Positions 644 to 61,850 of a stretch of 64,000 nt of DNA are shown one piece after another. The stretch is taken from IMG/VR virus record IMGVR_UViG_3300025000_000055. One strand, 5' to 3'. Position numbers and translations under genes: made by a program. Origin of the DNA: a virus (Duplodnaviria > Caudoviricetes). How positions within the stretch are numbered: the stretch's first letter is position 1; every line of letters starts with the position of its first letter. A model generated the notes under the pieces. That model did not search any database. It saw only the letters and a list, made by a program, of their open reading frames with translations, and had not been told where the DNA came from.

Positions 644-799
644 ATTATCCTCCTCTTATTTTAAGTTATTTATATATTTTTATATAATATATTGTAACTT
701 AATAAATAATATATAAATAAAATTTAGTATAAAGATATTATATCTTCTATTATGAAAATATAAGCTTTATACTAAATTTGAAATTATTTTTTTATATAA

Positions 800-4960: not shown

Positions 4961-5644
4961 TTAATATTTTTTTCTTCCTATGTACATTATTAGACCATAA
5001 TACCCACCTGTCATTCTTTTTGGTTCTTTTATATATAGATCATTTAATGCAATAATTTCAAAATCACTAAAATATTTTTTCATTTCATTTTTAGTAATAG
5101 GTATTTGTTTAAAATTTAAATAATTAATATCATTTTTTGATAATTCCTTATTTGATAACATTTTATTTTTTTGATTAATATTAAATATTGGATCATTTTC
5201 AGAAAGTGTATTAATAAGAACTATCCCATTATAAATTAAACCATTCTTAATATTATTTATAAGTTTTTCAATATTATTTTTTGATAAATAAGATATTGTC
5301 ATTGAGCATATAATTAATGAATATGTATTTATAGGTATATTAAAAGATGTTATATCCTCTGTTTTAAATACACATCTAGAATTACGATATTTGTTTTCAA
5401 GTTCCTTAATTATAACATTAGATATATCTATACCTTCAATTGAAAATCCATTTTTTAATAGAAAATCTACGTTTCTACCAATACCTATTCCTAATTCAAG
5501 TACTTTTCCTATAGGAATATATTTTAAATATTCTTGTAATAATATATCTGGAATAGGCTCAAAATAATGATTCCCAGTAGTATAAATATTGTTATAATGG
5601 TTTTTAATATTATTTATTTCATTTCCATCTGATAATGAAAACAT
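4961..5644 (-). CDS. class I SAM-dependent methyltransferase
   Basis: VLELGIGIGRN motif I, GIDIS acidic motif, YSLIICSMTISYL, NGIVLI. Confidence 0.85.
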   Translation of the reverse strand: MFSLSDGNEINNIKNHYNNIYTTGNHYFEPIPDILLQEYLKYIPIGKVLELGIGIGRNVDFLLKNGFSIEGIDISNVIIKELENKYRNSRCVFKTEDITSFNIPINTYSLIICSMTISYLSKNNIEKLINNIKNGLIYNGIVLINTLSENDPIFNINQKNKMLSNKELSKNDINYLNFKQIPITKNEMKKYFSDFEIIALNDLYIKEPKRMTGGYYGLIMYIGRKKY

Positions 5645-5695
5645 TGAAAACAGCTCCTTTTAAATTAAATTTTTTTCTCTAATTAAAAGTTGTTG

Positions 5696-5914
5696 AACAA
5701 ATAATTAATGACTAATTTTATTAAATTTTTCAGGAGGTTATTGATGACAAATGGTTGGACATCTGCTCAATAATAACAAACCTTTAACCTTACTTAATTC
5801 TAAGTTATTAATTTAGAATGTAAGGATTATTTTTTACCACACTCGTATGAGTAAAATACCTGTTCACCAACATCTTTATAATAAAAAATTATAAGGAAGG
5901 GTTGGTGAACAGGT
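5696..5914 (+). promoter_or_regulatory. structured 5' leader of the RNAP beta gene with two late-type promoters and a uORF
   Basis: AACA-N6-TA at 5696-5707 and 5869-5880; AGGAGG + MTNGWTSAQ* at 5744-5773; 13-bp inverted repeat 5858-5870/5902-5914 covering the SD region. Confidence 0.5.
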
Positions 5915-5915
5915 T

Positions 5916-8834
5916 TTGATTTTTATTTCAGATATACCTCATCTTAAGACTTATAAACAAAAAGTTTTACTACCTAAAGATGAAAAATACCCTAGTATTA
6001 ATAGTGTTGTTTTTATCAATAATAATACTATAGAATCTTCTATAGAGTTATTAAAACATGAATTTATTAAAAATAGTAGTATGTATCATTTTTATTTTAT
6101 GGACCAAATTTATAGTGGTAAATTATTTAATAGAACATTTAGGATTTTATACCGTAAAGAAAGAACTGATATTTATACTAATATAGAAAAACAAGTTAGA
6201 TTTATACAAACAGTTACAGATTTACCATCAGTAAATAAAAAAAATATATATGTTGATTTAATAAAACATAATACTTTATTTTTTGAATTAAGTAAGAAAG
6301 TTAATTTTGGAGTTAGAATTAAAAATTATATAAGTTATTTAGATAACTTAATTAATAATAGTCATTTTAATCAATACAAATATAAAACAATTTGTATTGA
6401 TATTAATAGTTGGATTAACGACGTGGGAACCCAAATAAAAGGTAAATTAAATTTTGATAATCCTATATTTATTATTTATTACTGTATGTATAAATATTTT
6501 GATAAATTTATAGAATTAGGAAATATTAATATTATCTTTTATACTAATGATAGTGTATTAAGATTAAATCCATCATTATGTGATAAAAATTCATATTCAT
6601 TATTTAAGAAAGAGATTATGAAATCATCTCCTAAAAGTTTATTGGATATGGATGAAGAAAATATTGAAAAAATATTAAAAAGAAAAGAAATTGCAGATAA
6701 AATGATAGGATATCTTAATGACCAACATAGATTTATTGGTGATAATAAAACTGAACAAGATGATGAATTTGAAAATAGTATTGAAGAAAAAGTTGATGAA
6801 ATAATTGATGCTAATAAATTAGATGATTCTAATAGTGAAGAAATATATAATAAAGTTTCATCTACTATTATTAATGATAATGAAATTATAAAAAAAATTC
6901 ATATGTTGAATCAGGAGAAAAAAGTTGGTAGAAGTACAGCTTCTATTAAAAGGGATGAAGAATTAAGAAATAAGCAGAAAGAAATAATAGAAGATAAAAT
7001 GGGAATATATATAGATAATATATATGAAACTACTAATAAAGAACAACTCGATATTCCTAAATTTGATGTTTCTGATAAAGTTAATACTACTAATAAAAAT
7101 ATAACTACTATAAGATATCCTCATTTTGAAAAGGCATATAATGAAGTTCTTCATGAAAAAGATTTACTTAATAATATAAAGTTTTTAAATGAAAAATCTA
7201 TTCCAGTTTACATCAGGAACATAGAACACATTGATTCTTCTGATGAATTAAATTTAAAAGAAACATATACCTTTGAATTAGAAGATGAAAATAGAGTTAG
7301 ACATAAATTAAAATTCGATGTACCTAAATTTATAGATGATAAATTTCTATATTTAGGTGGAAATAAAAAGATTATTATGAAGCAATTATTTATGAAACCT
7401 GTTGTTAAAACAGGTCCTGACGAAGTACAAATTTGTACTAATTATAATAAGATGTTTATTAGACGTTATGGTACTAAAATATCATCTAAAATAGAAAAAA
7501 TGAGAAAATTATTATATGAACAAAAAGAAGGTATTAAAGTTAAATATGGTAATAATTTATCTAGTAATAATAAATATAATACTACTATAGAATATGATGA
7601 ATTATCTAAAAGCTTTACTTATATTCGTATAGGTAAAACTGAATTTTATTTTAATCAAGATGATGTTATTAATATGATTACAGATAAAAAAATAAAACTT
7701 AATGAAAATGAATTATTAATAGGTTTTCATGATAATGGTAAAACACCAATACCTATTATAGTTGATATAAATACTCAAAGAATCGGTACATCTTTTGATA
7801 TAGTTGGTTATATACTTTCTATGTTGACTCAAGGTTTAGTACAAGATTTTGATGATATTAAAAGTGGTAAAAAATTCGTATATACTAGAGCTTATATAAT
7901 GCAAAAACATGTCCCTGTAATTTTATTAATTTCATTTCTAGAAGGTTTATCTACAGTAATAAAGAAAGCTAATATAAAACATTACTTTTCAGATAAGAGA
8001 CCTAAAGACATAACTAGTAATGAGGGAATAATTCAATTTAGTGATGGGTACTTAATTTATGATAAGTATCCATTTGAAAACTCTTTATTAATGAATGCAT
8101 TTGCCGATATTCCTACTAAAACTTTTGAATATAGTGAATTTGATTCAAAAGATGTTTATTTATCTTTATTTGATACTCTTTATAATAGTAGAATAATTGG
8201 TAATGCTTTTCTTAATTCATATGAATTTTTAATTGATCCTATTACAAGAGAAGTGTTACAAGATTTAAATTATCCAACTGATTATGTTTCTTTAGTTCTA
8301 TATGCAAATTCATTATTGGCAACTAATTCGTATATTAAAGAGAATAATATGAATCTTTATAGAATAAGATCAAATGAATTAGTTAATGCTTTAATATATA
8401 AAGAAGTTGCTAACGCTTATATTAAATATAGAACTACTTCTTTAAATAATAATCCGGTTAAAATATCTGTACCTCAAGATATCATTATTAAAAAATTACT
8501 GGTTGCACAGACCGTGGAAGACTACAGCACATTAAATCCTATTGTTGAAGTTGAGAAATCAAGAGTTATTACACCAAAAGGTCATTCAGGTATGAACTTG
8601 GATGAAGCCTATACACAAGATAAAAGGTCATATGATAAAACAATGTTAGGTATTTTAGCAATGTCAACTTCACCAGATTCTTCATGTGGTGTAACCAGAC
8701 AATTAACCTTAGAACCCAATATAAAAAATCCAAGAGGGTATATTGATATAAATGATGATAGACTTGATAAATTAAAAGATGTGAATTTATTTTCTCCAGC
8801 TGAATTATTGTCTCCTTTAGGAAATACACGGGAT
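5916..8834 (+). CDS. rpoB: phage multisubunit RNA polymerase beta-like subunit, exon 1 of 3 (spliced 5916-8834, 9614-9865, 10988-11932; 1371 aa; probably the virion RNAP)
   Basis: Beta motifs FLYLGGNKK and NPIVEVEKSR; splicing restores RD|DSIRTAM (DDANRALM-like); size and position next to the tape-measure gene resemble phiKZ gp178. Confidence 0.88.
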
Positions 8835-9613
8835 GAGTTGCTATTGTCCCACTATATAGAAATATATAGTTAAAAACTCTTCTAATTGTCGGGGACATCC
8901 TTATTGCTCTTATTACCAAATTATATTAGTAATAATATAATGGCTTAATCTAATCAATTAAGGTATGGTAACAAGATAAGAGATTGGGTAATCCGCAGCC
9001 AAGTCTCATAGTATAAAAAAATAAAAAGAGTTAAAAATTATAACTCTTTTAAATTAATTTTAACAATATTCTTTACCTTTTATTACATGACAAAGATAGT
9101 TATGGATATCACGAAGTTCTCTTCTAATATATAATTTATGTATTTCTCCAGTACCATCATATAATTCATCATATAATAAGAAGGTTTCTTCGATATAATA
9201 TCTAAAAAGTTCTAAATTTTTACGAGTAACAAATTCATCTGTTGCTCTTTCTTCGTTATTGTTATATTGCTTTAAGTCATTGGTGAATCTTTGTTCAAAG
9301 AACTTTTTAGTTATTTCTATAGATTCTTTGGAGATACAATCTGGATCTAATTCTTTGATACCATTCATTAAAATATCTTTGTAGGTAACTGACATAAAAA
9401 TCATTCCTTTCTTTTTTATATTATATAAATAATATATAAATGAAAAATAAAATTATACTATGAGAAAGGTTCAAAGACTATCGAAAGCATGTTTATTATT
9501 TAATAAACAGAAGTGAGTAGAGTAGGGGAAACCCCAAACGGAGAGCATCTAAACACGTAATGGTGAAGATGATGATATAGTCTGTCACTTATGGAAATCA
9601 TAGGTGGTTTCTG
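8835..9613 (+). mobile_element. group I intron 1 in the beta gene (779 nt)
   Basis: Exon ends in U and intron in G; P1 GGGAU/GUCCC with U-G wobble; AATTGTCGGGGA and ATCCGCAGC core elements; P7 GACTAT 9476-9481/ATAGTC 9577-9582. Confidence 0.92.
9060..9404 (-). CDS. antisense hypothetical protein inside intron 1 (probable start 9395, 111 aa)
   Basis: AAAGGA SD 9405-9410; TATATTAT 9429-9436; hairpin 9023-9051 with T-run downstream; no nuclease motif. Confidence 0.7.
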   Translation of the reverse strand: MIFMSVTYKDILMNGIKELDPDCISKESIEITKKFFEQRFTNDLKQYNNNEERATDEFVTRKNLELFRYYIEETFLLYDELYDGTGEIHKLYIRRELRDIHNYLCHVIKGKEYC

Positions 9614-9865
9614 GATAGCATAAGAACAGCGATGAGTGTAAAACAATCAAAACATATAGTTCCAGTAATAAAACAATCACCAGTTTTATTATCCAATGGA
9701 GTTGAACAAGTTATTCATTATCATTTGTCAGACGACTTTACAGTTGTAGCTAAAGATGATGGTGAAGTCGTTGAAATAAATAAAGAAACTGGTTTAGTTA
9801 TTATTAAATATAAAAATGGTGAAACGAAAGCAATTGATACAAGTCCAAGAGTAGTAAAAAATGGT
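9614..9865 (+). CDS. rpoB: RNAP beta-like subunit, exon 2 of 3
   Basis: DSIRTAMSVKQSKH...SPRVVKNG; in frame with both flanking exons. Confidence 0.9.
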
Positions 9866-10987
9866 AAACTAAATGCCCATTTATATGGTGACATATAAGT
9901 GAATCTTCTTTAATTGTCGGGGAAGCTCTTAGAGCCTAAAACTACTAAATTATTAGTAATAATGTTTTAGGATTGGGTGATCCGCAGCTAATAATTAATA
10001 TACGTTAACTATGATAAAACTATTAAAAGAAAGGAGGAAAAAATATGTTATATGTCTTTTGTGGTAATAAAGAGTTTTGGGTTGATTTAAATTATGATAT
10101 AATATTATCTATATATCAAATAAGTTTTTATGGTAATATTATTAATAAAGAAAATGGTAAAATATTAAAAGGTCATATTGATAAAAAAGGTTATGTTCAA
10201 GTTATGTTAAAAACAGTAGAAAAAAGAATTAAAAAATACAGAATACATGTTTTAGTAGCAAATACTTTTTTAAAATTTCAAAAAAGTGAAATTAATAATA
10301 CTGTAAATCATAAAAATGTAAAAAGTAAAAAAGATAAAATTAATAATAATGTTAATAATCTAAAGTGGGTTAGTAATGCAGCTAATAATAAACACGCAAA
10401 AGAAAATGGTTTAATTCATAAAGGTGAAGAATGTCATAATTCTATTTTCAGTAATAAAGAAATTCATAAAATATGTCAAATGCTTCAACACGAATATTCT
10501 TATTCTGAAATAATAAAAGAATTAAAATTAAACGATAATAAAAATATACGAGCTTCTTTATATAGAATAAGAAAAAGGATATCATGGGCACATATTAGTA
10601 AAAATTATTTTTGGAATGATTCTTATAGTTCGAATGGTAAAAGAAAATTAAAATCTTATAAAAAAATAAATGAAATGAAAGAATTAATATTAAGAAATTA
10701 TTCGTTTAATGATATATGTAGAATTTTATTAATTAGAAATAATTCTAATAATAGAGACATATATCGTAATATAAAAGATGGAAATGCGTATATTGATTAA
10801 AGTTCAACGACTATCCTTTAGCTTTGAAATAAGCAACAGGAGTAGGGCCTAAGTAGGTGGGTGAAAGTCCCTTAAATCGAAATAGGAAGTATCTTTATGA
10901 GATGAAGATATAGTCTAGTATCCTATAGAAATATAGGGAAGTTCATAAGAGAACTGCATAGATTAACGACCTATGTGAATTTTTACG
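9866..10987 (+). mobile_element. group I intron 2 in the beta gene (1122 nt) with HNH gene
   Basis: U|...G| boundaries give VVKNG|AGGFFLSN; conserved P/Q/R/S elements; P7 10809-10814/10910-10915. Confidence 0.92.
10045..10800 (+). CDS. HNH homing endonuclease
   Basis: GYVQVML, RIHVLVANTF, VNHKN...NNVNNLKWVS...NNKH; C-terminal HTH-like region; AAGGAGG SD. Confidence 0.9.
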   Translation: MLYVFCGNKEFWVDLNYDIILSIYQISFYGNIINKENGKILKGHIDKKGYVQVMLKTVEKRIKKYRIHVLVANTFLKFQKSEINNTVNHKNVKSKKDKINNNVNNLKWVSNAANNKHAKENGLIHKGEECHNSIFSNKEIHKICQMLQHEYSYSEIIKELKLNDNKNIRASLYRIRKRISWAHISKNYFWNDSYSSNGKRKLKSYKKINEMKELILRNYSFNDICRILLIRNNSNNRDIYRNIKDGNAYID

Positions 10988-12325: not shown

Positions 12326-15300
12326 ATGGCAATAAAAAATAGAACTAAGATTAAGACTAAATCACCTACAGCTTTAAGTTGGTTTAAAAATGTTGGAAAA
12401 TCTTTAGGTTATACTACAACTGAATTAATTGAAGAAATGATTCCAGCCCCAATAGATTTTATTAAAAGTAACACAGAAACATTTAAAAACTTTTATAATG
12501 ATTTAAGACAAAGTAAATCTTTAAGTAAAAAATTATCAGATCAGATAGTAAAGAATGAATATATTAATATAGGTCAAACAGCAATAAAAAATGCTTTAAA
12601 AGATATTAAATCGGGTAAAATTTATAATAAAGGTAGACAGGAAGAAATATTTAATGATGATATTGATTTTGAATTTGGTGATGATTTAAATATTGATAAT
12701 GATGATTATAAAGTATCATCAGAAACAATGTCTGATTCTAGTAGTTCACCTACTGTTAATAGAGTTGTAGTTTCTTCCAATATAAATAAAAATAATCCTA
12801 TGGTTAAAGCAGTAGAAAGACAAACCGAAGCTTTATATAATACAACTCAAGCTAGTGATAAAATATCTATATCCTTAGCTACTAATCATATGATGATAAA
12901 TAGAAAACTTGGAGAAGATTTAAATAGAGGTTTAAGTGCTATAAATGATAATCTAAGTCTACTTGTTAACTTCCAAAGTGAATCAATGACTAGATATATA
13001 AGCACTACTTTTAAATACTATGAAGAAAGTTTAAATCTATTTAATAATATTCATAGTGAAATGAAAAAAGGGGTTTCAGAAGAAAAGATTGTTAAAGAAA
13101 AAGTCGATCCCATGGATTCAGTCTTTTTATCTAAAGGTGGACTAAATATATCCGGTTATGCTAATTTAATTAAAAGACAATTTGGTGCAGCTGTAGATCA
13201 AGATATGATATTGTCTCAACTAAAATATATGTTATCAGATAAAGATCAATTAAAATTTTTAGCTGCTTCACCTATAAGTTTTCTATCCACTAAAATAGTA
13301 TCTGCATTTATTCCTTCTATGTTAAAACAAACTTTAACTAGTATGAATAAAAGTTTTGAGAATTTCTTTCCAGCTTTATTAATGAAAGCTAATAGAATGA
13401 TTGGTTCTCAAAACCCTATACTTAATTTTTTAGGTCAGGTTTTTGGTATAAATGTAAAACAAAAATCATCTGTTGATTTATCTCAATATGAAAAGGGTGC
13501 AGTTCCTTTTGATGGATATACAAAGAAATCTATTACAGAAGTTATACCAGGATATTTAAGAAAAATATTAGCTGCATTAAATGGTAAAGAAGAAGTTGCT
13601 TTTGATTATGATAATGGTGTTTTTAAATCTATGGATTCTATGCAAAAAGATTTTCAAAGCACTATGAATAGAAGTATTCTAAGTAGTTTTTCAGATGTTA
13701 TAAGTGAAATAAAAGATAAAGCTAATGCTTTTAATATTCAAAATGATGAGGAAAGAAAAAAATTTAATAAAGACCTAGAGACTTTTTTCTTAAAGTTACC
13801 AGGTTTAAATAAATTAATAAATCCAGTAAGAACTAAAGATAGAAATGGTGTTAATATAAATGAATTAAAAGATGTTCATGATTTTGGTAGTGAAGAAATG
13901 AATAATTTCTTCAGACAGTTAGTATTATCACTTGATAAAGGTGATATACAAAAAATGTTTGGTACTGATGTATTAAACGCTAGAAAAAATAAAGAAAAAA
14001 TATTTAATGAAGCTGAAACAAATCCACTAAGATATAATGCTGCTTTAGTTAATAATCAATTAAATTTTGATGACCATATTAAAAGAAATAAATATAATCG
14101 AGGTCAATTTGAAGTAAAGAAAGGTTTTGGTGTTTTATCCAAAACAGATCAATTCAATAAAATTGATTTAGATTATTTACGTGATATTAAAGAAATTCTA
14201 TTAAAGGGTATTAAAGTCTTTCCAATAACTCAATTAATTAATCCGGATGGAACAATAACCCAACCTAATTTTAACTATCATGAGAGACAATTAAGGAGGA
14301 TGGAAACTGAAAGAAGAGAAAGAGATAGAAAATTTAAAGTAAAAAAACAACAAGATACTGAAATTACACCTGAGTTGGAAAGAATAAATAGACAACAAGG
14401 AAGAAGAATTTTAAATAGATTATCAGATTCAGATATTTCTCCTGAAGAAATGAGAGACCAAATTAGAATATTTGATGAACAAAGAAGAAGTGATTCTGAA
14501 CGAGATAGACGACAACAAAGTGGTTGGTTAAGTAGTTTTATATCTGGTGATATGCAAACTAAATATAATTTATTAAGAGAAAAAGTAAGAGATATTTTTA
14601 ATACTCCAGCTAAATTACTTAATACTGTATTTAAAAAAATAGATGATAGTATGTTTAAAATAATTTTTGGTGATGAAGAAGGTGGTGGTACCACATCTTT
14701 TCTTAGTAGAACATGGGCATTGATGCAAAGTAAGTTTCAAACAATGTCTGAATGGTTTAAAGATAAAATATTTACACCTATTAGAGAATCTTTATTTGGT
14801 CCTAATGGGTTTATAACTAAATTAAAAGATTCTGATTTTTTTAAAGGGATTAAATCTAATTTTGGTAAATTAACAGATTTTTTATTTGGGTTAAAGGATT
14901 CTACTGGTAAAAGAAAAGGTGGGATATTTTCAGACACAGCAAATAATCTTTTAGATATTTTTGATGGTGCTAAATATTATTTTACTGGTAGAGCTTATAT
15001 AAATAGATCTGGTGTTTCTTTTCCTAGTAATAATAAAAGTGTATTTGGTGAATTAAAGTCAATGTTTGGTGGTTTTAAAGATACTATAAAATCTTATTTA
15101 TTTGGTAGAAGATCACAAGATGGTAATATACAAGAAACAGGAGTTCTTTCATCAGCTGTTAATAGTATAAAAGATGGTTTTCAAAATTTTTCAGATGCTA
15201 TTTTTGGTCCACGAAAAATTGGTGGAAAAGATAATAAAAACTATTTGATAGTTGGAGACTTATTTAAAAAGTTTAAAGAAAGATTACCTAAAGCATTGTC

Positions 15301-18300
15301 TTTTGGCATTCTCGGAGCCGGTAGTGGGTTGTTAATGGGTGGTAAGTTAGGTTTATTAGGTTCATTATTTTTACCCGGTGGTCCTATTGGTGGAGCTATT
15401 GTTGGTACCACAGTTGGTTTTCTATCACAATCGGATAGATTTAAAGATTGGTTATTTGGTCCTAAAGATATTAATAATAATCATATTGGTGGTTTTATTA
15501 ACAAGAAAACTCAAGAGTTCTTTAAAAAGAATAAGGTAGGTATTATTGGTGGTGCAAGTTTAGGAGCTCTTAAATCTATATTAGGATTTGGATTTTTACC
15601 ATCATTCTTTTTACCCGGTGGTCCTATTGGTGGTGCATTATTTGGTGCGAGTATATCAATGTTAGCTAGTTCAGAAAAATTTAAGAAATTTATGTTTGGT
15701 GATTTACAAGCAGACGGAAATAGACTTGGAGGTATAGCTCAAAAAATATTTGGTAAAGTTGATAAAACTAAAGCTAAAAAAATGTTTGGTAATGTTAGTG
15801 CTGGTATATTAGGTGGAGCTAGTATAGGGTTAATTACAAGCAAATTTGGTTTATTAGGTGCCGCTTTATTACCTGGTGGACCATTAGGTGGAGCTTTATT
15901 AGGAGCTGCTGCCGGTATAGCTTTATCATCTGAGAAATGGAAGAAAATGTTGTTTGGTGAATTTGATGATGAAACTCAATTGAGAAAAGGTGGTTTATTA
16001 GGTAAAGTTATTAATTGGACTAATTTAGAAGTAGTTCAACCTATTAAAATAAAATTACAAGAAATAAATCTAAATGTTAAAGAATGGTTTACAAGAAGTA
16101 TAGCTAATCCATTTCTTAATGCAATTGATCCAATTAAACATGAAATAAAATTAATGATAAGAAGTTTAAAAGATAATTTTGTAGAAGGTTGGACTAGTTT
16201 TAAAATTTTTATCGGTGATGTATTTGAAAAACATGTAGGTATGCCTTTTGGTAAATTTATGGAAGATAAGGTTATGAAACCATTAAGAGGTTTCATGTCA
16301 AAAATATTAGGTGGTATTGGTAGAATAGTTGGTAGTATTGTATCCGCTCCATTTAAAGGAATGGAGGGGCTATCAAGAGGTTTGACAAAAAAACATATGC
16401 AAGCTGGTTTAGATGCTTATGTTGAAGAAGGTTGGAACGATCTACTTGATTTTAAAGGTAGAAGACAACGTGGGGAAAAAATAGGTTTCTTTGGTGGATT
16501 AAAGAAATTTAAAGACATTTATTTTAATAGACAAGCTAGAGATAACGCTAGAAATAGTAGTCAAGGTGCTCCATATGCTAGACAATTGGAAATTGATAGA
16601 CAAAGAAGAGAAGATGAAGCTAATGTTGAATTTGGTGCTAAAAGAGAAGATATAAGAAAAATGTGGAGTGCGTGGAAAGATAGAAAAAGAGCCGGTATTA
16701 ATAATAATTATGATAATTTTAGTCCTGATGGAAAAGTTGTTAGAGAACAATATTTATCTCCAGAAGAACGAAGAGTTGAACAAATGACCTCAAATCCAAT
16801 TAATGATACTACTTATAATATAAATAGTAGAACTGGCAGAAGGAGAAGAGGTAGACCTAATCCTAAACCTGTAAATGACCAAAGTGTAATAATATTACCT
16901 GGTTCAGTTCAACAAGGTGATACAACAATTGTTGATGATGTTACTAATGTTATAAATAACAGAAATGGTAGTAGAAGAAGGGGTAAAAAATCAACAACAA
17001 CTTCATCTATAAATCAACCCATTATTAATCAACAACAAACTCAAGACACATCTATAATACAACCAACTATTAGTCAAAGTCAACAACCTACTAAAAAAAC
17101 ATCTACACGTAGAATTAAATCAAAAGATGAATTAATAATACAAATAGCAGGTGATGTAAGAACTATTGCTAAAGAAGTTAATGGTCAATTAGATGGTGTC
17201 GGTGGTAATGTTTATAAAATAAGAAAATTAATTCAGTCTCAACAGGGTATAAGTGACGAAGATTTAAGTGGAAGTTCAAATAGAGATAGAGTTGGATTCT
17301 TTGGTAAAGTAAGAAGAATGCTATATAAACCTATAGACACTATTAAAGAGAAAGTTATGGGATCTATTCAATTTGTAACTGATAAAATTACTTCTGTTGG
17401 TAAAAAAATATTTGATTTTAGTAAAACAATATTAGTTACTATACCTAAACAAATATTTTCAACTATGTATAATATAGGTTCTGAAATATTATCAATTGGT
17501 AAAGAAACGTTTCTTACTATAGTTAAATTACCAGGACAATTATTAAATTTATTTGCTCAAACTACAAAAATATTTGCTGAATCATTAAAAATGGTAGTAC
17601 CTGCTATTGGAGAAACTCTTAAAGGTGTAGCTAAATTATTCTCAGGTGCAATGGGAATGGTTAGCGAAGCAATGATAGGTGTTGGTAAAGGAATAGGTCA
17701 AGTTGCTTTTAGTATTGGTGAGGTTATTGGCTCAACTTTATCTGCTTTTACTAAAAGTATAATGAATATAGTTCCAGTTGTAGGAGACTTCTTATTAACT
17801 TCCAGTAAAATGATTATGGATTTTGGATTTGGTATAATTAAAAATGTTGGTAGTTTATTAACAAGTGTTACTAAATCTTTATTTAGTATAGCAACTTCAC
17901 CACTTAGATTTGCAGCGGATATGCTTGGTAGAGCTGTAGGTGTTAATAGATCGGAAATGTATATTACAGGTGGTATTATTGATGTGGTTAAGAAAATTGG
18001 AGATACCAGCTCTGATTTTACACAAAGTCCAAAAAGTAATAGAAATAATTTATTTAATAATTCAGATAATATAGTTATACCAGTTAGAGTAGATGGAATT
18101 ACTTCAGTTAGAATTGTTGGTTTAGATAAACCTGTTCCAGTTTATTTTAATATGAATACAAATCAAAATCAACGTAGAATTAGTTCATCAAATATTCCAG
18201 GTTTAAATAATATAGGGAATAATGGTAATTATTTAACATCATCTTTAATAAATGCACTTGATATATTTGATACACAAAATGATGAAGAAGAAAATAATAA

Positions 18301-21300
18301 ACAAGCTGAAAAAGATAGACAAAAAGAATTATATCAAAATCAATTACAAGTTTCTAGGAAAACATCAGGGTTTTTAATAGCTCAAAATACTTTAAGAAAT
18401 GAGAAAGAATTTACTAGAAATAATGAAATAAGACAAACCTCATTACTACAAAACATTGCTGATACATCTAAAGGTCATTATGACAGCTGGTTATCAATAT
18501 TTGGGGTTAAAGGTGCTTTAACAACAGCATTATTATTAGCATTACCTTTTTTGAAAGATATTATTCAATGGGTTAAAAATAATTTTCCTTTTGGTGGTTC
18601 CAATTCTGGAATTGTTGATAAGGCTTTAGGTTTAATAGAAAAAAATGATACTAGTCGAAATGATGTGGATGAAAATGGAGTAGCAACTAAAAAAATTATA
18701 AATGCTCAAGGTAGAGAAAGTTATATTAAAGGTTCTGGTATTTTAATTAGAAGAAATGGACCAAAAATTTTAGAGTCTTTAAGTAAAGGTAAAGATAAGT
18801 TTGTAAATTCTAGTATCGTAAAAAATATTAGTAAGTATAGCTCAGATTTAAAAAATAAATTCTTTTCATCAGGTAGAACTGGAGTAATTGATGCTTCTTT
18901 TAGAGTTATTGATGATACTGGTAGAATTGTTAGAGAAGTTACTGTCAATGATTCTAATAAAATTATTCAAGCTATTAAAAATACTTTTGAGAAATTCTTT
19001 AATAATGCATTTGTTAGAGAAAAATTGGGTTCATCTGCATCAAAAATAGCTAGTAAAATAATAGGGGTTGTTACTAAAGTATTTAATTATAAAACTATAA
19101 TTAATCATATGGGTAAATTATCAAAAGCTTTTTTAAGAACAGGTGCCATTGTATTTGCAGCTCCAGTAATAATAACATGGGATTTAGCTACAGGTGCATA
19201 TGAAGCATCTAGAATATTTAGAGTTAGAAATGAATCAGTTGATGAAAAAATGAGAATAGCCTCATCTATAACTAAATCATTAATAGGATTCTTTCCTGTA
19301 ATAGATATAATATCAGAAATATTTAATGAACAAACCGGTATGAGTTTAAAACAATATGTTGCTACAACAATTTATTCAACATTAGCTTCATCTGAAGAAT
19401 TAAATAAATTAGAATTAAATAAAAAGGTATTTGAAGATGATAAGAATAAATATAATGAAGAGAATGGTACTGAGTTATCTTTAAATGCTTATAACGATAG
19501 GCAAAATAAAACTTTCTTCCAGAAATTTATCAGTAATCCTTTGTCTAAAACTAAAGATTTTTTATCTAAAAATTGGGATGATAGTAAAAAACAATGGAAT
19601 GTAGGTAAAAATTTTGCTTTAAGAACAGGACATAACATTGGCACTAGTTTATCTAAGAATTGGGATAGTTTTAAAGGAGGTTTTAGTAGAGGTTTTAATA
19701 TGATGGGTAATGATATTTCTGGAGCATTTTTTAATACAAATGAACGGTTGAAAACAATTAAGAATAGTTTATCTAAAAATTGGGAAGATTTACAAGAAAA
19801 TAGTAATAAGCAGTGGGTTAATATGAAAGGTTTTGTTTCTAAATCTTTAACTGATACTAATAATACTTTAGGTAAATTATTTGGATATAAAGATGAAGAA
19901 GGAAATGACGTTAGTTTTACAGAAGGATTTAATATAGGTTTTAAGGGAATTATAAAAGGTATTAGAGATAGTTGGAAAGAAATTGCTGATGGTGCTAAAT
20001 TTTATTGGGATAACACAAAAGCATTTACTGAAAAGAAATGGAAAGAATTAACTGAGAAACTCCCAAAAGCATTTGAAAGTTTAGATAATTGGTTAGGTGA
20101 ATTACTAGGATTTAAAGATAAAGATGGTAATAATTTATCTCTATCTGACTATGCAAATAATAAAATTAGTGGTATTAAAAAATATTTTTCTAAAGATGGA
20201 TACAATGGTTCATCATCATTCTTTAGTGGAAGAGGTGGGAATGGAAATGGTGGTTTTGGTGAAGAGCCAAATAAGCTTAATAATTTCAAATATTACTCAC
20301 AGTATGATGACAGATGGGGTAATTCAACTTATGATTTAAGTTCAGGTCATTCAGTTCACCCAACAATATCTGCTAGAGGTTGTGGACCAACTTCTATGGC
20401 AATGGTTGTTAGTCAATTAACAGGTAAACAATACGAACCACCCCAAATGGCTAAATTAGCTCAAGAGGGTGGGTATAGTACAAATGACGGCACAACATGG
20501 GGTTATTTTGATAGGGTTGCTAGGGACTTTAGTTTAAATAAAGAAACAATCAACCCTTCAAATATGCTTAATTATATTAATAAAGGTATGCCAGTAATCC
20601 TATCAGGTAAAAGAGATACCTATTCATTAAATGAATCCCCATTTACACCTGGTGGGCACTTTGTTGTTGCCGTTGGAAGAGATGATAAAGGTAATGTTTT
20701 AATAAATGATCCTAGAGGTTCTAAATTTTCTAAACCATATGATTTTAATAAAATTACTAAAGAAGCTAGACAGGGGTGGGCTTTTAGTTATAATGGTGGA
20801 GTTTTACCCCCTAATATAGTTTCATCAACAAATAGTAATATTATTTCTGAACAAAAACAATTATCTGTAATGGATCTATTCACCAAAATGTCAGAGGCTT
20901 TTACAATATATAACGAAAATGTAATGCTTGGAACAAATAAAAAATTATCATGGGATGACATTGAAGGAACTAGTAATGATTTCAATGTTTCAATATCAAC
21001 ATCTGAATCAAGTAGTTTATCTAATTTTATTCCTAAGAATTTACAAGAAGTCATTTTAAAGAAAACCTTAGAATTATCTATAGGTTCAGAATCATCAGGT
21101 GATTATACTAGTTCTAATAATGATACTAATGCATCTACAGGACGAAGAATTTCTCCATCTGTAGGTATTTTACAGTGGAGAGGTAATAATGCCAAATCAT
21201 TAATGCAAAGAATGTATGAACAATTGCCTGGTAATAGTGAAGCTAATTATTTTGCTAATCAAGTTGATTGGGGTAATCAAAATCCCTGGAATGATAGCCA

Positions 21301-22198
21301 AAGAGCAAGATTGAAAAAATTTCTTGGTGATAATATGAGTATAAGTCAAAAAGTTCAAAATGAAATGGCTCTATCTCATATTAGAGATACGAACTTGGCT
21401 CCAGTATATAAATATGGTGTTGATACTAATAAGATAAAAGATCCAAGAACAATTGCATTTCTTGCTGATTTCGCTAATACCGGACCAGCTCTTATTAAAC
21501 CATTCTTAGAAAAATACAATCCAAATAACGGTGGAATGTCTGAATTTGAACATTTTTTAAATGAATTTAAAAATAAGAGTTATTGGGGTAATAAAGGAAT
21601 ATATGCTAATAGAATAAACAATACTTATTCTAAATTATCTGGATGGAAACCTGAATTTGGTGGTAATGGTGATTTTTGTTTATCATGTAATTCAAAATCA
21701 TTACCTGGGGGTTTTGGTGAAGATAATAGTATTATACTTAATAATAAAGTTAATTTAGAAAGATTTACTGGCGGACTAGGAGATTTAACAACATCTATCT
21801 CAAATAAATATAAAGGTGAAGCAATTAAGTATAACCGTAATATATTTGAAAGTGTAAATAGTGGAATGGGTGATTATATTAGTACTAGTAGTAATACACA
21901 AAGTTCAAATATATCAATGGATGAAATTGTTAATGTATTAAAGGAAATTGCAATAAATACCAATACAACGTCAAAAGGTATTTCTGAAATAGCTGCTAAA
22001 GAAATGACAGTTACTGTAAATAATAATCCCACTACAAGTGATACTGATCGAGTTAATAATATCAATGTAAATTCACAACAACATAAAAATACATTTGTTA
22101 GTCCATTCTTTCAATCTTTAAATGAAGGAAATGGTGTTGGTAATAATAAAGAACAACGTGATTATACTACAGCTAAAAAAATAGCTAGAGGTAGATGA
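12326..22198 (+). CDS. tape-measure-like virion protein (3290 aa) with C39-like peptidase and phage-tail-lysozyme-like domains
   Basis: Very long helical/Gly-rich protein with LPGGPIGGA repeats; YSQYDDRW..GCGPTSMAM..GGHFVV..INDP (C39-like); SVGILQWRG (lysozyme-like). Confidence 0.8.
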   Translation: MAIKNRTKIKTKSPTALSWFKNVGKSLGYTTTELIEEMIPAPIDFIKSNTETFKNFYNDLRQSKSLSKKLSDQIVKNEYINIGQTAIKNALKDIKSGKIYNKGRQEEIFNDDIDFEFGDDLNIDNDDYKVSSETMSDSSSSPTVNRVVVSSNINKNNPMVKAVERQTEALYNTTQASDKISISLATNHMMINRKLGEDLNRGLSAINDNLSLLVNFQSESMTRYISTTFKYYEESLNLFNNIHSEMKKGVSEEKIVKEKVDPMDSVFLSKGGLNISGYANLIKRQFGAAVDQDMILSQLKYMLSDKDQLKFLAASPISFLSTKIVSAFIPSMLKQTLTSMNKSFENFFPALLMKANRMIGSQNPILNFLGQVFGINVKQKSSVDLSQYEKGAVPFDGYTKKSITEVIPGYLRKILAALNGKEEVAFDYDNGVFKSMDSMQKDFQSTMNRSILSSFSDVISEIKDKANAFNIQNDEERKKFNKDLETFFLKLPGLNKLINPVRTKDRNGVNINELKDVHDFGSEEMNNFFRQLVLSLDKGDIQKMFGTDVLNARKNKEKIFNEAETNPLRYNAALVNNQLNFDDHIKRNKYNRGQFEVKKGFGVLSKTDQFNKIDLDYLRDIKEILLKGIKVFPITQLINPDGTITQPNFNYHERQLRRMETERRERDRKFKVKKQQDTEITPELERINRQQGRRILNRLSDSDISPEEMRDQIRIFDEQRRSDSERDRRQQSGWLSSFISGDMQTKYNLLREKVRDIFNTPAKLLNTVFKKIDDSMFKIIFGDEEGGGTTSFLSRTWALMQSKFQTMSEWFKDKIFTPIRESLFGPNGFITKLKDSDFFKGIKSNFGKLTDFLFGLKDSTGKRKGGIFSDTANNLLDIFDGAKYYFTGRAYINRSGVSFPSNNKSVFGELKSMFGGFKDTIKSYLFGRRSQDGNIQETGVLSSAVNSIKDGFQNFSDAIFGPRKIGGKDNKNYLIVGDLFKKFKERLPKALSFGILGAGSGLLMGGKLGLLGSLFLPGGPIGGAIVGTTVGFLSQSDRFKDWLFGPKDINNNHIGGFINKKTQEFFKKNKVGIIGGASLGALKSILGFGFLPSFFLPGGPIGGALFGASISMLASSEKFKKFMFGDLQADGNRLGGIAQKIFGKVDKTKAKKMFGNVSAGILGGASIGLITSKFGLLGAALLPGGPLGGALLGAAAGIALSSEKWKKMLFGEFDDETQLRKGGLLGKVINWTNLEVVQPIKIKLQEINLNVKEWFTRSIANPFLNAIDPIKHEIKLMIRSLKDNFVEGWTSFKIFIGDVFEKHVGMPFGKFMEDKVMKPLRGFMSKILGGIGRIVGSIVSAPFKGMEGLSRGLTKKHMQAGLDAYVEEGWNDLLDFKGRRQRGEKIGFFGGLKKFKDIYFNRQARDNARNSSQGAPYARQLEIDRQRREDEANVEFGAKREDIRKMWSAWKDRKRAGINNNYDNFSPDGKVVREQYLSPEERRVEQMTSNPINDTTYNINSRTGRRRRGRPNPKPVNDQSVIILPGSVQQGDTTIVDDVTNVINNRNGSRRRGKKSTTTSSINQPIINQQQTQDTSIIQPTISQSQQPTKKTSTRRIKSKDELIIQIAGDVRTIAKEVNGQLDGVGGNVYKIRKLIQSQQGISDEDLSGSSNRDRVGFFGKVRRMLYKPIDTIKEKVMGSIQFVTDKITSVGKKIFDFSKTILVTIPKQIFSTMYNIGSEILSIGKETFLTIVKLPGQLLNLFAQTTKIFAESLKMVVPAIGETLKGVAKLFSGAMGMVSEAMIGVGKGIGQVAFSIGEVIGSTLSAFTKSIMNIVPVVGDFLLTSSKMIMDFGFGIIKNVGSLLTSVTKSLFSIATSPLRFAADMLGRAVGVNRSEMYITGGIIDVVKKIGDTSSDFTQSPKSNRNNLFNNSDNIVIPVRVDGITSVRIVGLDKPVPVYFNMNTNQNQRRISSSNIPGLNNIGNNGNYLTSSLINALDIFDTQNDEEENNKQAEKDRQKELYQNQLQVSRKTSGFLIAQNTLRNEKEFTRNNEIRQTSLLQNIADTSKGHYDSWLSIFGVKGALTTALLLALPFLKDIIQWVKNNFPFGGSNSGIVDKALGLIEKNDTSRNDVDENGVATKKIINAQGRESYIKGSGILIRRNGPKILESLSKGKDKFVNSSIVKNISKYSSDLKNKFFSSGRTGVIDASFRVIDDTGRIVREVTVNDSNKIIQAIKNTFEKFFNNAFVREKLGSSASKIASKIIGVVTKVFNYKTIINHMGKLSKAFLRTGAIVFAAPVIITWDLATGAYEASRIFRVRNESVDEKMRIASSITKSLIGFFPVIDIISEIFNEQTGMSLKQYVATTIYSTLASSEELNKLELNKKVFEDDKNKYNEENGTELSLNAYNDRQNKTFFQKFISNPLSKTKDFLSKNWDDSKKQWNVGKNFALRTGHNIGTSLSKNWDSFKGGFSRGFNMMGNDISGAFFNTNERLKTIKNSLSKNWEDLQENSNKQWVNMKGFVSKSLTDTNNTLGKLFGYKDEEGNDVSFTEGFNIGFKGIIKGIRDSWKEIADGAKFYWDNTKAFTEKKWKELTEKLPKAFESLDNWLGELLGFKDKDGNNLSLSDYANNKISGIKKYFSKDGYNGSSSFFSGRGGNGNGGFGEEPNKLNNFKYYSQYDDRWGNSTYDLSSGHSVHPTISARGCGPTSMAMVVSQLTGKQYEPPQMAKLAQEGGYSTNDGTTWGYFDRVARDFSLNKETINPSNMLNYINKGMPVILSGKRDTYSLNESPFTPGGHFVVAVGRDDKGNVLINDPRGSKFSKPYDFNKITKEARQGWAFSYNGGVLPPNIVSSTNSNIISEQKQLSVMDLFTKMSEAFTIYNENVMLGTNKKLSWDDIEGTSNDFNVSISTSESSSLSNFIPKNLQEVILKKTLELSIGSESSGDYTSSNNDTNASTGRRISPSVGILQWRGNNAKSLMQRMYEQLPGNSEANYFANQVDWGNQNPWNDSQRARLKKFLGDNMSISQKVQNEMALSHIRDTNLAPVYKYGVDTNKIKDPRTIAFLADFANTGPALIKPFLEKYNPNNGGMSEFEHFLNEFKNKSYWGNKGIYANRINNTYSKLSGWKPEFGGNGDFCLSCNSKSLPGGFGEDNSIILNNKVNLERFTGGLGDLTTSISNKYKGEAIKYNRNIFESVNSGMGDYISTSSNTQSSNISMDEIVNVLKEIAINTNTTSKGISEIAAKEMTVTVNNNPTTSDTDRVNNINVNSQQHKNTFVSPFFQSLNEGNGVGNNKEQRDYTTAKKIARGR

Positions 22199-30525: not shown

Positions 30526-30702
30526 CAAGATAGAAAAAATAATGGTTTTTTTATTTATATATTATTTATTTAGAAAAATAAATAATCACTGACTAAATTA
30601 ACATATACTATTATAAAAATAACCTCCCGCAAAATTATATTACTTATATAAAAATATAGAGATATAAGTTATTTAAAAAAAATAAGGGAGAGTGTTATTT
30701 TT

Positions 30703-58814: not shown

Positions 58815-60038
58815 AAATTTACAATGCACGTGATTCTTTAATTGTCGGGGAAGCCTTTTAAATATCTTACTACCAAACTATATTAGTAATAATATAGTGG
58901 CGAAGGGTAATGCCTTAGGTATGGTAACAAGGTAAGAAATTAGGTAATCCGCAGCTAAGTCTCTTTATTTGTTGTGTTAAAATAAGTTTTTAATAATAAA
59001 TAAACTTTTTATTAAAGGAGGTGATAAGATTGTTTTTTATAAATATAATAACAGAAAAGGAACAATGGAAAAAAATTTATATTAAAAATAAAATAACAAA
59101 ATATAGTATTAGTTCATATGGTAATATTAAAAATGAAGAAACTAATTATATATTACATCCTGCTAAGGATTCAGATGGGTATTTGATAGTTTCACTATAT
59201 CTTAATTCAAAGCGGTATATTAGGAAAATGCATAGATTAGTGGGAATAGCTTTTATACCTAATCCTGAAAATAAACCTACAGTTAATCATAAAGATGGTG
59301 TTAAATCTAATAATTATGTTTATAATTTAGAATGGGCTACTTATTCTGAACAAATGGTTCATGCATTTGAATTAGGTTTAGTTGAAGGTGGAAAAGGTGA
59401 AAAAAATTCCATGTGTAAATATTCAGAAAAAATAATTCATAATATATGTGAATTATTAGAAAATGGATATAATCGTTCAAAAATATCTAAAAAATTAGAA
59501 GTACCAAAAGATTTAATACAAAGAATTGTATTAGGAAGAAGTTGGACATATATATCATCATTATATAATATAGATCCTAAAAAAAGTAAAACTCCATATT
59601 CAAAAGGACAAGAACACTATCATGCATCTTGTAATGAAGAGATGATACATTCAGTTTGTAAATTATTAGAAGAAGGAAAATTATCAATTAAGGAAATATC
59701 TAAAAAATTAAATATTTCTAAATATATAATAAAACATATTTTATACAATAATACTTGGAAACAAATATCATCTCAATATAACGTGGATAATTTTAAAAAA
59801 TATAGACATAATACAACAACAAATAAAGAGAAAAGTTCAACGACTATCGAAAACAATATGTTTATCATTAATATAAAAATTGGTAAACATAGGGTAAGTA
59901 GGTAAACTCACAAGTCAATTAATGGTGGGTTGAAATGGGAAACCATCAAAAAGATGAAGATATAGTCTAGTATCCTAGTGAAAACTAGGGACGTTCATTA
60001 GAGAACTGCATAGTCTGACGAACTATGTGAATACAACG
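58815..60038 (+). mobile_element. group I intron 3 in the beta-prime gene (1224 nt) with HNH gene
   Basis: U|...G| boundaries give RSV|ISAPVFK; P1 GUGUA/UGCAC; P7 59842-59847/59962-59967; core nearly identical to intron 2. Confidence 0.92.
59021..59905 (+). CDS. NUMOD4-HNH homing endonuclease (probable TTG start 59030)
   Basis: WKKI..YSISSYGNI, GYLIVSL, MHRLVGIAFIPNPENKPTVNHKDGVKSNN..NLEW; two HTH-like repeats. Confidence 0.92.
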   Translation: MIRLFFINIITEKEQWKKIYIKNKITKYSISSYGNIKNEETNYILHPAKDSDGYLIVSLYLNSKRYIRKMHRLVGIAFIPNPENKPTVNHKDGVKSNNYVYNLEWATYSEQMVHAFELGLVEGGKGEKNSMCKYSEKIIHNICELLENGYNRSKISKKLEVPKDLIQRIVLGRSWTYISSLYNIDPKKSKTPYSKGQEHYHASCNEEMIHSVCKLLEEGKLSIKEISKKLNISKYIIKHILYNNTWKQISSQYNVDNFKKYRHNTTTNKEKSSTTIENNMFIINIKIGKHRVSR

Positions 60039-60735: not shown

Positions 60736-61850
60736 TTTACGTTCGAAGAACTTTGGTCGCTCAGCAGTAGTAATATTGCTGATAGCATTCTGTGAACGCT
60801 TAACGAGCGGTGTGTGGGTTATTAAGAATAAAGTTGGAAAGATAACCTATGCTAACGGTAGAAGCGGAAATAAGTGGTATTTGACAGCCGACGAATATGC
60901 TTCGTAAGAGAACCTAAGGACCTGAAATATGGTTAGCTTGGTAATACCGTGTTTTTATGAATTAACTTTTCCCAAAAAATAAAAAAGTATTAAATGCTCA
61001 ACAATTCAATGAGGTGAGTAATTTGTTTAAAATTTCAGAAGAGGAATCTAAAGAATGTAAGAAATATTTTGGTGTTATTTATATGATTATTGATAAAACA
61101 AATAATAAAATATATGTTGGACAAACAAGAGACATTTTAAACCGTCTACGCCAATATAGATATGAAAGTAAAAAATTAACTAAACGTAATATTAATAGGG
61201 ATATTGGTATTGCTCTTTATGAAAAAGGAGAAAAGAATTTTGAATGTGTTATATTGGAGAAATGTAATTCATTGGTTGATTTAAATATGAAAGAGATTAA
61301 ATGGATAGAAAAACTTGACTCAAAAAATGTAGAAAAAGGATATAATATGGGTATTGGTGGAGAAGCGTATGAAAATAAAAGAGGGATTAAATTAACATGG
61401 GAAGAAAGATTAAAAAAATCAATACCAATAGTTGTATATGAAGATGGGCAATTTAAATATTATGAGGGTTCTAAACTCTTTGCTTCAATTATAGGAGTTG
61501 ACAGAACACATATAACAAGAGCAATAAAAAAGGAATTAAAGTTAAAAAGTATCTTATTTTTTATTATGAGAAAGATCTCTGTTACAACACTATTACTGAA
61601 ATTGAAAGAAATTTATATAATAGAAAAAAGATTTTAAAAGAAAAAGTTAAATACATTGAATTGGGGAAAGATTTAATTCATAGGAATGTAGAGATCATTC
61701 GAAATTTTAATATTTATATTAAATATTAAAATAGTAGAAGTACTAGCCAGTTTGAGGGCTGGTTGGGAAGCGCAGAACTCCTTTATATTTCTTATTCTTT
61801 ATAAAGGATGAAGAGATGATCCGTGCCATATGAAAATATGGATTATCATG
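60736..61850 (+). mobile_element. group I intron 4 in the beta-prime gene (1115 nt) with GIY-YIG gene
   Basis: U|...G| boundaries give DYDGD|QVSLKVLFSQEANLEA; P1 GCGAU/GUCGC; P7 GATCAT 61693-61698/ATGATC 61816-61821. Confidence 0.88.
61014..61637 (+). CDS. GIY-YIG homing endonuclease (C-terminus probably continues in the -1 frame to 61729)
   Basis: GVIYMI..NNKIYVGQT...R; E..WI..L....KGYN; NUMOD1-like HTH near the end. Confidence 0.88.
   Translation: MSNLFKISEEESKECKKYFGVIYMIIDKTNNKIYVGQTRDILNRLRQYRYESKKLTKRNINRDIGIALYEKGEKNFECVILEKCNSLVDLNMKEIKWIEKLDSKNVEKGYNMGIGGEAYENKRGIKLTWEERLKKSIPIVVYEDGQFKYYEGSKLFASIIGVDRTHITRAIKKELKLKSILFFIMRKISVTTLLLKLKEIYIIEKRF

Follow-up and report, generated by a model that had tools for sequence, protein, structure and literature searches.

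A group I intron in a phage RNA polymerase gene carries an antisense non-nuclease gene, probably as exchangeable P6 cargo

The open reading frames (ORFs) of phage group I introns are treated as homing endonucleases almost by definition. In the classical phage introns, the ORF has a history distinct from that of the intron and is served by a promoter of its own inside the host transcription unit (PMC2988022). In phage AR9, one intron of g189, the late gene for the virion RNA polymerase (RNAP) beta subunit, contains the HNH gene g190, for which a separate early promoter has been mapped (PMC5312081), and in the jumbo phage PhiPA3, the HNH nuclease gp210, which is associated with an intron in the RNAP beta gene, is a weapon against a co-infecting phage (PMC11620839). 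Antisense His-Cys box endonuclease genes are found in the nuclear ribosomal DNA (rDNA) L2066 group I introns (PMC9548176), and the IStron CdISt1 of C. difficile joins a group I intron to an IS605-family element (PMC3984707). A search of a 2014 review of bacterial group I introns turned up neither antisense ORFs nor ORFs of unknown function, with IStrons as the only non-endonuclease cargo. Here we analysed a stretch of 64,000 nucleotides (nt; hereafter the window) from a virus of the Caudoviricetes (Duplodnaviria; IMG/VR record IMGVR_UViG_3300025000_000055), in which the first intron of a virion-type RNAP beta gene (intron 1, positions 8835-9613) holds in its P6 loop a gene unit on the opposite strand that encodes a small helical protein. 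In the open-access literature, which misses most subscription papers, we met no account of a phage group I intron that carries a non-nuclease gene in antisense orientation and closed off by a terminator, nor of P6 loops as exchangeable cargo slots.

Our reading, to which we assign a probability of roughly 60%, is that the P6 loop of the intron is a slot for exchangeable cargo, and that the unit is an early accessory gene carried there as a passenger. As judged from the aligned introns, the dispensable P6 hairpin is replaced by an autonomous minus-strand expression unit of 442 base pairs (bp) with a putative promoter of its own, and this unit appears to behave as a P6 module exchanged among many near-identical introns of the phage clade.

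We identified the host gene as a homologue of AR9 g189, which is annotated (KU878088) as the virion RNAP beta subunit in six joined pieces, with the HNH gene g190 in one intron. Exon 1 (5916-8834, plus strand; from the ORF call and tblastn) comprises 973 codons and ends ...NTRD, and the uncut ORF at 5916-8873, with 985 codons, passes the point where the downstream frame rejoins by 13 codons. The last codon of exon 1 (GAT, up to 8834) is complete, and the sequence from 9614 onward is in frame with the ORF at 9632-9898. Removal of intron 1 restores an uninterrupted host frame, with the joined protein reading ...GNTRD/DSIRTAMSVKQSKH... (the slash marks the junction), and this junction, ...RD/DS..., lies in the double-aspartate region of RNAP beta. 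Exon 2 (9614-9887, plus strand, 3' end approximate) begins with DSIRTAMSVKQSKH... and is followed by intron 2. In tblastn searches, the protein of the host gene was 34-43% identical to the beta subunits of PBS1-like jumbo phages of Staphylococcus, Listeria and Bacillus. The AR9 late-promoter consensus AACA-N6-TA occurs at 5695-5706, about 210 nt upstream of the start of the beta gene, consistent with a late gene.

An initial annotation of the window, made by a model from the letters and a list of ORFs, had placed a group I intron at 8835-9613, and this assignment stands. Besides the restored frame, the 779-nt plus-strand intron has a P1 helix, formed by GGGAU at the end of exon 1 (8830-8834) and the internal guide GUCCC (8846-8850), with a U.G pair at the 5' splice site, and its final base, 9613, is a G; both the U.G pair and the terminal G are conserved in the orthologues. 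The Rfam search of the window gave no match at the gathering score (50 bits for RF00028, Intron_gpI), and the E-value mode over 14 kb returned chance matches only; the intron stretch searched alone gave a partial Intron_gpI match of 24 bits at 9407-9605. The intron stays below the gathering score because of the long (442-nt) insert in P6. Indeed, two orthologues without an ORF at the same exon position give full-length Rfam matches, at 7095-7439 of locus L007 (63.7 bits, E 4e-15) and at 5172-5517 of locus L017 (61 bits). In blastn searches, both halves of the intron 1 core matched known intron sites in AR9/PBS1, SPO1-like, Twort-like and Serratia jumbo phages, and the AR9 match lies inside g189. 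By these sequence features, the segment is a genuine group I intron in the virion RNAP beta gene, and it is predicted to self-splice.

The core elements that frame the cargo were found as exact matches: Q, the 3' strand of P4, at 8989-8999 (directly before P6 in the Rfam alignment of the orthologue), and R, the 5' strand of P7 plus the 3' strand of P3, at 9468-9482. Between them, the 5' strand of the P6 stem (9004-9013) is a 10-bp complement to its 3' strand (9456-9465), so that the stem closes the cargo loop; the same stem flanks the antisense unit in L001, L007 and L017. The 442 bp between the two stem strands hold, in minus-strand order, a promoter core, a ribosome-binding site, the ORF and a terminator. 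The initial annotation had described a complete unit here, encoding an acidic, helical, non-nuclease protein of 111-114 amino acids with its own Shine-Dalgarno sequence, an early-type motif and a hairpin/T-run terminator, and each of these elements was recovered in our analysis, as detailed below.

The early-type TATATTAT of the initial annotation (9429-9436) is part of the 10-mer TATATATTAT (9429-9438), the core of a 17-mer at 9425-9441 on the minus strand that resembles the AR9-type early promoter used by the virion RNAP. The experimentally defined AR9 early promoter is AAATATATATTAT-N6-G (PMC5312081). The site in the window reads ATTTATATATTAT, then 6 nt, then A, matching 11 of the 13 consensus positions with the 10-nt core exact. 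The 10-mer TATATATTAT occurs 20 times in the window against 5.5 expected (3.6-fold enrichment; 0 of 100 shuffles reached 20), and 11 of the 20 copies are followed on the same strand, within 150 nt, by the start of a Shine-Dalgarno-led ORF of at least 50 codons, whereas random positions average 1.8 such cases with a maximum of 6. The distance from promoter to ORF is 33 nt in the unit, and 30-137 nt over the TATATATTAT copies; a range of 30-96 nt was also noted for the motif ahead of Shine-Dalgarno-led ORFs. The exact 17-mer recurs at 702-718(-) and 30553-30569(+), and the 10-mer lies upstream of every copy of the cassette. A scan for sigma-70 promoters performed no better than on shuffled sequence; the genome has a G+C content of 24.7%. 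Another TATATATTAT core lies at 7015-7024(-), antisense within beta exon 1 and with no ORF downstream, and may be due to chance or be a source of antisense RNA.

The ribosome-binding site GAAAGGAA (9404-9411, minus strand) lies 9 nt before the ATG at 9395 and is invariant in four aligned copies. From this ATG, the ORF at 9060-9395 on the minus strand encodes 111 amino acids; an upstream in-frame ATG at 9404, which overlaps the ribosome-binding site, would give 114 (9060-9404). The start at 9395 is likelier, and use of 9404 unlikely, because the gene callers picked 9395 and this spacing between ribosome-binding site and ATG recurs in L001, L007 and L017. Downstream, an intrinsic terminator (9014-9050, minus strand) consists of a 10-bp hairpin at 9024-9050 followed by the U-run UAUUUUUUU (plus-strand positions 9014-9023), and the hairpin folds with -8.9 kcal/mol (z -2.7). 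The corresponding place in L017 and L023 is taken by a T-run and by hairpins that differ from this one. The RNA predicted from promoter to terminator, about 9016-9422, lies inside the peripheral insert only and stops short of the P6 stem, Q and R.

We then examined the ORF and its product. The three close copies of the ORF differ by codon-sized insertions and deletions, their pairwise ratios of nonsynonymous to synonymous substitution rates (dN/dS) are 0.16-0.23, and third codon positions hold 26-32 of the 47-59 differences among them. This substitution pattern indicates that the minus-strand ORF is a real gene under purifying selection. The protein is mildly acidic, with an isoelectric point (pI) of 5.2 and 22 Asp plus Glu against 17 Lys plus Arg. 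An exhaustive HMMER scan of 1.84 billion cluster representatives detected homologues in 30 clusters (E<1e-3), nearly all of 105-142 amino acids, with two longer ones. Across the family, D53 is invariant, and R36, K42, Y44, N45, E69, E70 and R95 are nearly so. With a 32-sequence alignment, AlphaFold2 (AF2) gave a confident model (predicted local distance difference test, pLDDT, 90; predicted template-modelling score 0.82) of a four-helix bundle, composed of four long helices and a short one with no strand; with three sequences only, the model was poor (pLDDT 60). A tblastn search with five family members against 50,697 records of cultured phages detected no relative, and a subset of the family alignment had no copy in 185,579 species-representative genomes.

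Searches for a nuclease in the protein were negative. Pfam and PHROG searches with all 32 aligned family members gave no convincing match, the family profile had no match among the sequences of the Protein Data Bank (PDB), and no HNH, GIY-YIG, LAGLIDADG, His-Cys or EDxHD motif is present in the 111 residues. The insert, read on both strands, shows no similarity to the three endonuclease ORFs of the window. A loose PD..D.K pattern, considered as a sign of a PD-(D/E)xK nuclease, was rejected: it sits in a helix, its residues are not conserved, and the fold is all-helical. An HEPN-like Rx4-6H motif was also rejected, as its His is not conserved. Structure comparison with the AF2 model gave no PDB match better than E>3 with Foldseek, and an exhaustive comparison with PDB representatives (VIA) reached Z values of at most 8.2 with a bromodomain, a YqeY-like protein and other bundles, below the level that is meaningful for helical bundles. 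The AFDB clusters and the ESM Atlas returned repeated weak matches to core-binding domains of tyrosine recombinases (template-modelling score, TM, 0.40-0.53) and also DUF5856; BFVD gave one unnamed viral protein (TM 0.61), and a feature search of the Atlas gave a score of 0.75, to be taken as a lead only. No nuclease appeared among the fold-search matches of the model, which is without the beta strands of nuclease folds. The fold searches, as far as the model can tell, return only generic helical bundles, and by motif, alignment and predicted fold the protein is not a recognisable nuclease. The structure search suggested in the initial annotation thereby turned up nothing of a nuclease, and the alternative named there, a degenerate nuclease fragment, finds no counterpart in motif, local similarity or fold.

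We looked up where the homologues are encoded and compared intron 1 with the other intron-borne copies, in a set made up of the window, L001, L007, L017 and L023. Family members were located at no fewer than three intron sites, across five phage types, and in each case within P6. In L007 and L017, the protein encoded by RNAP beta exon 3 shares 91-93% identity with that of the window, and the orthologue of intron 1 has a P6 hairpin of 32 nt only, with the antisense unit absent. Both phages carry the antisense unit in another beta intron, at a site (site D) after ...VVKNGKLNAH.YGDI. At this same site D, the window has intron 2, with a near-identical ribozyme core and, in P6, a sense-strand NUMOD4 ORF (10045-10800, plus strand; Pfam NUMOD4 6e-7, placed by alignment with the L007 and L017 introns) instead of the antisense unit. 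The claim that the unit stands in the place of a homing endonuclease thus agrees with the alternation of the two kinds of cargo on one core. The ORF at 10045-10800 matches only NUMOD4 in Pfam, without an HNH domain, and may be a degenerate or divergent endonuclease. In L001, the antisense unit lies in the second of two introns of a family B DNA polymerase gene, within motif A (...DMD/FSSMYPSII). L023 belongs to a more distant phage, whose beta exon 3 has only 68% protein identity. The cassette at this beta site encodes a family member of 44% identity, TATATATTAT and terminator are again particular to the copy, and the P6 stem shows a compensatory C>T/G>A double change.

The identities along intron 1 change abruptly at the edges of the cargo. 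From the 5' splice site to Q, the intron of the window is 97% identical to the L007 orthologue versus 78% to L007 intron D, and from R to the 3' splice site it is 94% identical to the orthologue versus 87% to intron D. The P6 module, by contrast, is 88.5% identical over 462 nt to the cassette of L007 intron D, where the orthologue has a P6 of 32 nt. The switch points fall within Q (8989-8999) and R (9468-9482), the elements common to all these introns. Intron 1 is thus a mosaic, as would be expected if paralogous introns had exchanged segments by way of homology in their conserved cores. In addition, Logan contigs at 85% likeness contain joints that skip 441-448 nt (9003-9014 to 9447-9459), revealing P6 forms without the ORF in the same samples; at this likeness, the contigs mix sibling introns and sister phages, and they carry no evidence on presence/absence polymorphism at this very locus.

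Within the cassette, the segment of about 75 nt with promoter, ribosome-binding site and stem is invariant or nearly so in four copies. The ORFs of L007 and L017 have diverged to 45% protein identity (dN 0.52, dS 1.05), whereas RNAP beta exon 3 of the same pair shows dN 0.02 and dS 0.41; the dN of the cassette ORF is about 25 times that of the host gene. Retention of a regulatory segment in front of a cargo that is exchanged or changes very rapidly would be the behaviour of accessory or conflict genes. The initial annotation had proposed that the intron serves an early gene as a neutral harbour within a late RNAP gene. The early gene in a late one fits the promoter motif and the precedent of AR9 g190; the harbour is not simply neutral, as the unit moves as a P6 module and its ORF evolves at this much higher rate.

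The following course of events would account for these data. The injected virion RNAP may fire the putative promoter early, before transcription of the late beta gene, as mapped for AR9 g190. The terminator would halt the RNA within the loop (about 9422-9016), clear of the P6 stem and the ribozyme core, and with the cargo in reverse orientation, ribosomes on the beta pre-mRNA would never translate its ORF and the ribozyme could fold undisturbed. The most likely route of exchange between introns would be gene conversion or homologous recombination, with the conserved Q and R sequences as the stretches of homology. The unit would also hitchhike when introns are copied into intron-less alleles by the HNH or GIY-YIG enzymes of sibling introns, and its place within the ribozyme of an essential gene may shield it from deletion. 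Within this passenger reading, the odds are roughly even that the product is an early accessory protein acting by partner binding, in host take-over, anti-defence or inter-phage competition.

Several points weigh against this reading. The recombination route is a deduction from mosaic identities. All of the intron-borne copies come from one aquifer study, a narrow sampling. The association of the family with P6 persists at 45% identity, which exceeds the expectation for a random passenger and hints at a function tied to the intron. The promoter-like site departs from the consensus twice, with ATT for AAA ahead of the core and A for G at the expected start, and the AR9 virion polymerase tolerates few deviations (PMC5312081). 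The ATT variant also precedes other genes in the window, and the sites of L007, L001 and L017 have a G one position before the expected start. Finally, the stem of the terminator is A-U rich and weak.

Relatives of the protein also occur outside introns. In L020, L026 and two viral contigs of 180 kb (L031 and L033), they stand in co-directional arrays of small genes, and we detected no Intron_gpI match in the searched flanks of these four. From such free-standing copies in small-gene arrays, it would follow that the family comprises general small phage proteins, with intron residence seen only in this clade of aquifer jumbo phages. In L020 (4001-5565; also in L021), the relative P0007, of 109 amino acids, ends 9 nt before the gene of a 408-residue TnpB (OrfB_IS605, including a Cas12f-like domain). 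The surrounding array is prophage-like and also contains YorE, ArsC and an integrase; the adjacency to TnpB may be due to chance or be a second link to mobile elements.

With these data, we weighed other explanations. The four-helix protein might be a new factor of intron mobility, either a nuclease of an unrecognised kind or a subunit that binds DNA and targets or assists endonucleases acting in trans. In that role, it would be equivalent in function to the homing endonuclease whose place it takes. We regard this as unlikely. It is true that the protein fills the slot of an HNH-family ORF and alternates with one at a single site, that it recurs at three or more intron sites of five phage types and always in P6, that its conserved residues (D53; R36, K42, Y44, N45, E69, E70 and R95) are polar, that the model weakly but repeatedly resembles the core-binding domain of tyrosine recombinases (TM 0.4-0.53), and that one free-standing relative adjoins a TnpB gene. 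However, the fold is all-alpha and the pI 5.2-5.8, no known nuclease motif or fold is present, at 105-142 residues there is no separate domain for DNA binding, several relatives are free-standing members of small-gene arrays with neither an intron nor an obvious target gene nearby, and the fold matches are below the level meaningful for helical bundles. Equally doubtful is a non-canonical intron-linked effector, by which the protein would promote the copying of introns into rival genomes or protect against rival endonucleases, with P6 loops serving as an integron-like slot that exchanges mobility and competition genes. As for an action at the RNA level, the early antisense transcript could anneal to the intron of the late beta pre-mRNA and slow its splicing or trigger its cleavage, thereby timing the virion polymerase. 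An early-type promoter convergent inside a late gene, and a promoter region conserved more strongly than the ORF, would suit such a role, to which we give little credence: the span from promoter to terminator is wholly peripheral and avoids the P6 stem, Q and R, the ORF is clearly under purifying selection as a protein, the unit also sits in the DNA polymerase intron of L001, the relatives are ordinary free-standing genes, and the orthologous beta intron of the sister phages works without the unit, so beta expression does not need it. The delay of splicing by antisense RNA that had been suggested in the initial annotation consequently gained no support.

Still less probable is a maturase-like splicing helper for the intron family, made early so that the introns of late genes fold correctly. 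Several introns of one family are seen here, and the protein is linked to them across divergent phages, as such a helper would be; against it, introns without the ORF are common in genomes whose copy is only 45% identical, the group I maturases known so far are of LAGLIDADG descent, some relatives stand alone with no intron found in their neighbourhood, and an acidic protein would be unusual as an RNA binder. The least credible explanation is a chance or decaying frame, or an endonuclease remnant, whose signals are AT-rich noise. A G+C content of 24.7% does make AT-rich motifs and weak hairpins easy to find, and the sigma-70 scan was indeed no better than shuffles, but the data already contradict this explanation, in the dN/dS of 0.16-0.23 with codon-sized indels, the 30 homologous clusters and the confident fold, the lack of similarity to the local endonucleases on either strand, and the enriched and well-positioned TATATATTAT. 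The passenger gene in an exchangeable P6 slot is the reading that we retain.

The other three introns of the window hold sense-strand ORFs, as had been noted initially: the NUMOD4 ORF of intron 2 (10045-10800), and two further ones in a beta-prime-like gene. Of the latter, the intron at 58830-60035 carries a NUMOD4 plus HNH_3 ORF with a helix-turn-helix (59021-59905, sense), so that this ORF, unlike that of intron 2, includes an HNH domain, and the intron at 60740-61830 carries a GIY-YIG ORF (61014-61637, sense). The GIY-YIG-bearing intron differs in type, being richer in G+C, and its insertion point immediately follows the catalytic ...GDYDGD motif. In L001, the two DNA polymerase introns, at 7065-6770(-) and 6500-5735(-), belong to the same family and are about 270 nt apart. 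In L007 (7087-7066(-)) and L017 (about 5164-5145), the orthologue of intron 1 is followed by an exon of 20 nt (gatagcataagaacWgcgat) and then by a second full group I intron; these second introns score 84 and 60 bits in Rfam, and the window is without such a second intron. Directly downstream of the RNAP beta gene of the window, an ORF of 3290 amino acids (12326-22198) matches Peptidase_C39_2 and is conserved in all of the sister contigs.

The intron loop described here carries an ordinary-looking accessory gene with its own expression signals, exchanged as a module and alternating with an endonuclease ORF. Should this hold generally, the self-splicing introns of essential phage genes would be a protected place for accessory genes, because imprecise deletion would destroy the essential gene. 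They could likewise be a vehicle that spreads accessory genes between co-infecting phages alongside intron homing, and could allow early gene expression from inside a late gene cluster. The orphan, fast-evolving family, about 30 clusters of small phage proteins, is a candidate for functions in host take-over, anti-defence or inter-phage competition.

Comparison with the known systems places the locus as follows. With AR9 g190, it shares a homologous host gene, intron cores that are 76% identical over 135 nt, and an early-type TATATATTAT core just upstream of an intron-borne ORF inside a late gene; g190 is a sense-strand HNH/AP2 endonuclease, whereas the present cargo is an antisense non-nuclease gene with its own terminator. 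The introns of T4 td, nrdB and nrdD (I-TevI, I-TevIII and I-TevII) and those of the SPO1 and Bastille DNA polymerase genes also carry their ORF in a peripheral loop, and the SPO1-like and Twort-like phage introns have a related ribozyme core. These classical introns encode sense GIY-YIG or HNH nucleases that drive homing, in contrast to the antisense, all-helical, acidic protein without a nuclease signature. PhiPA3 likewise has an RNAP beta gene split at the conserved double-aspartate region, after both Asp residues in PhiPA3 and at ...RD/DS... here, but a weapon activity like that of the HNH protein gp210 is not to be inferred for the 111-residue protein.

The L2066 introns resemble intron 1 in that a protein gene lies opposite the ribozyme strand, in a peripheral part of a group I intron; they differ in encoding His-Cys nucleases, with Pol II-type signals, in eukaryotic rDNA, where the present intron has a non-nuclease cargo and interrupts a protein-coding phage gene. 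IStrons similarly combine a group I intron with a cargo other than a classical homing endonuclease, but theirs is a transposase pair at the 3' end of the intron, and intron 1 contains no IS ends, transposase domain or further ORF. Phage morons are autonomous units of promoter, ORF and terminator added between phage genes. The P6 unit is like a moron in its self-contained ORF and terminator with a putative promoter, its variable presence among close relatives, and an accessory product that would be expressed out of phase with the neighbouring genes. Unlike morons, which lie between genes, it resides inside the ribozyme loop of an essential gene and appears to move as a sub-module of the intron.

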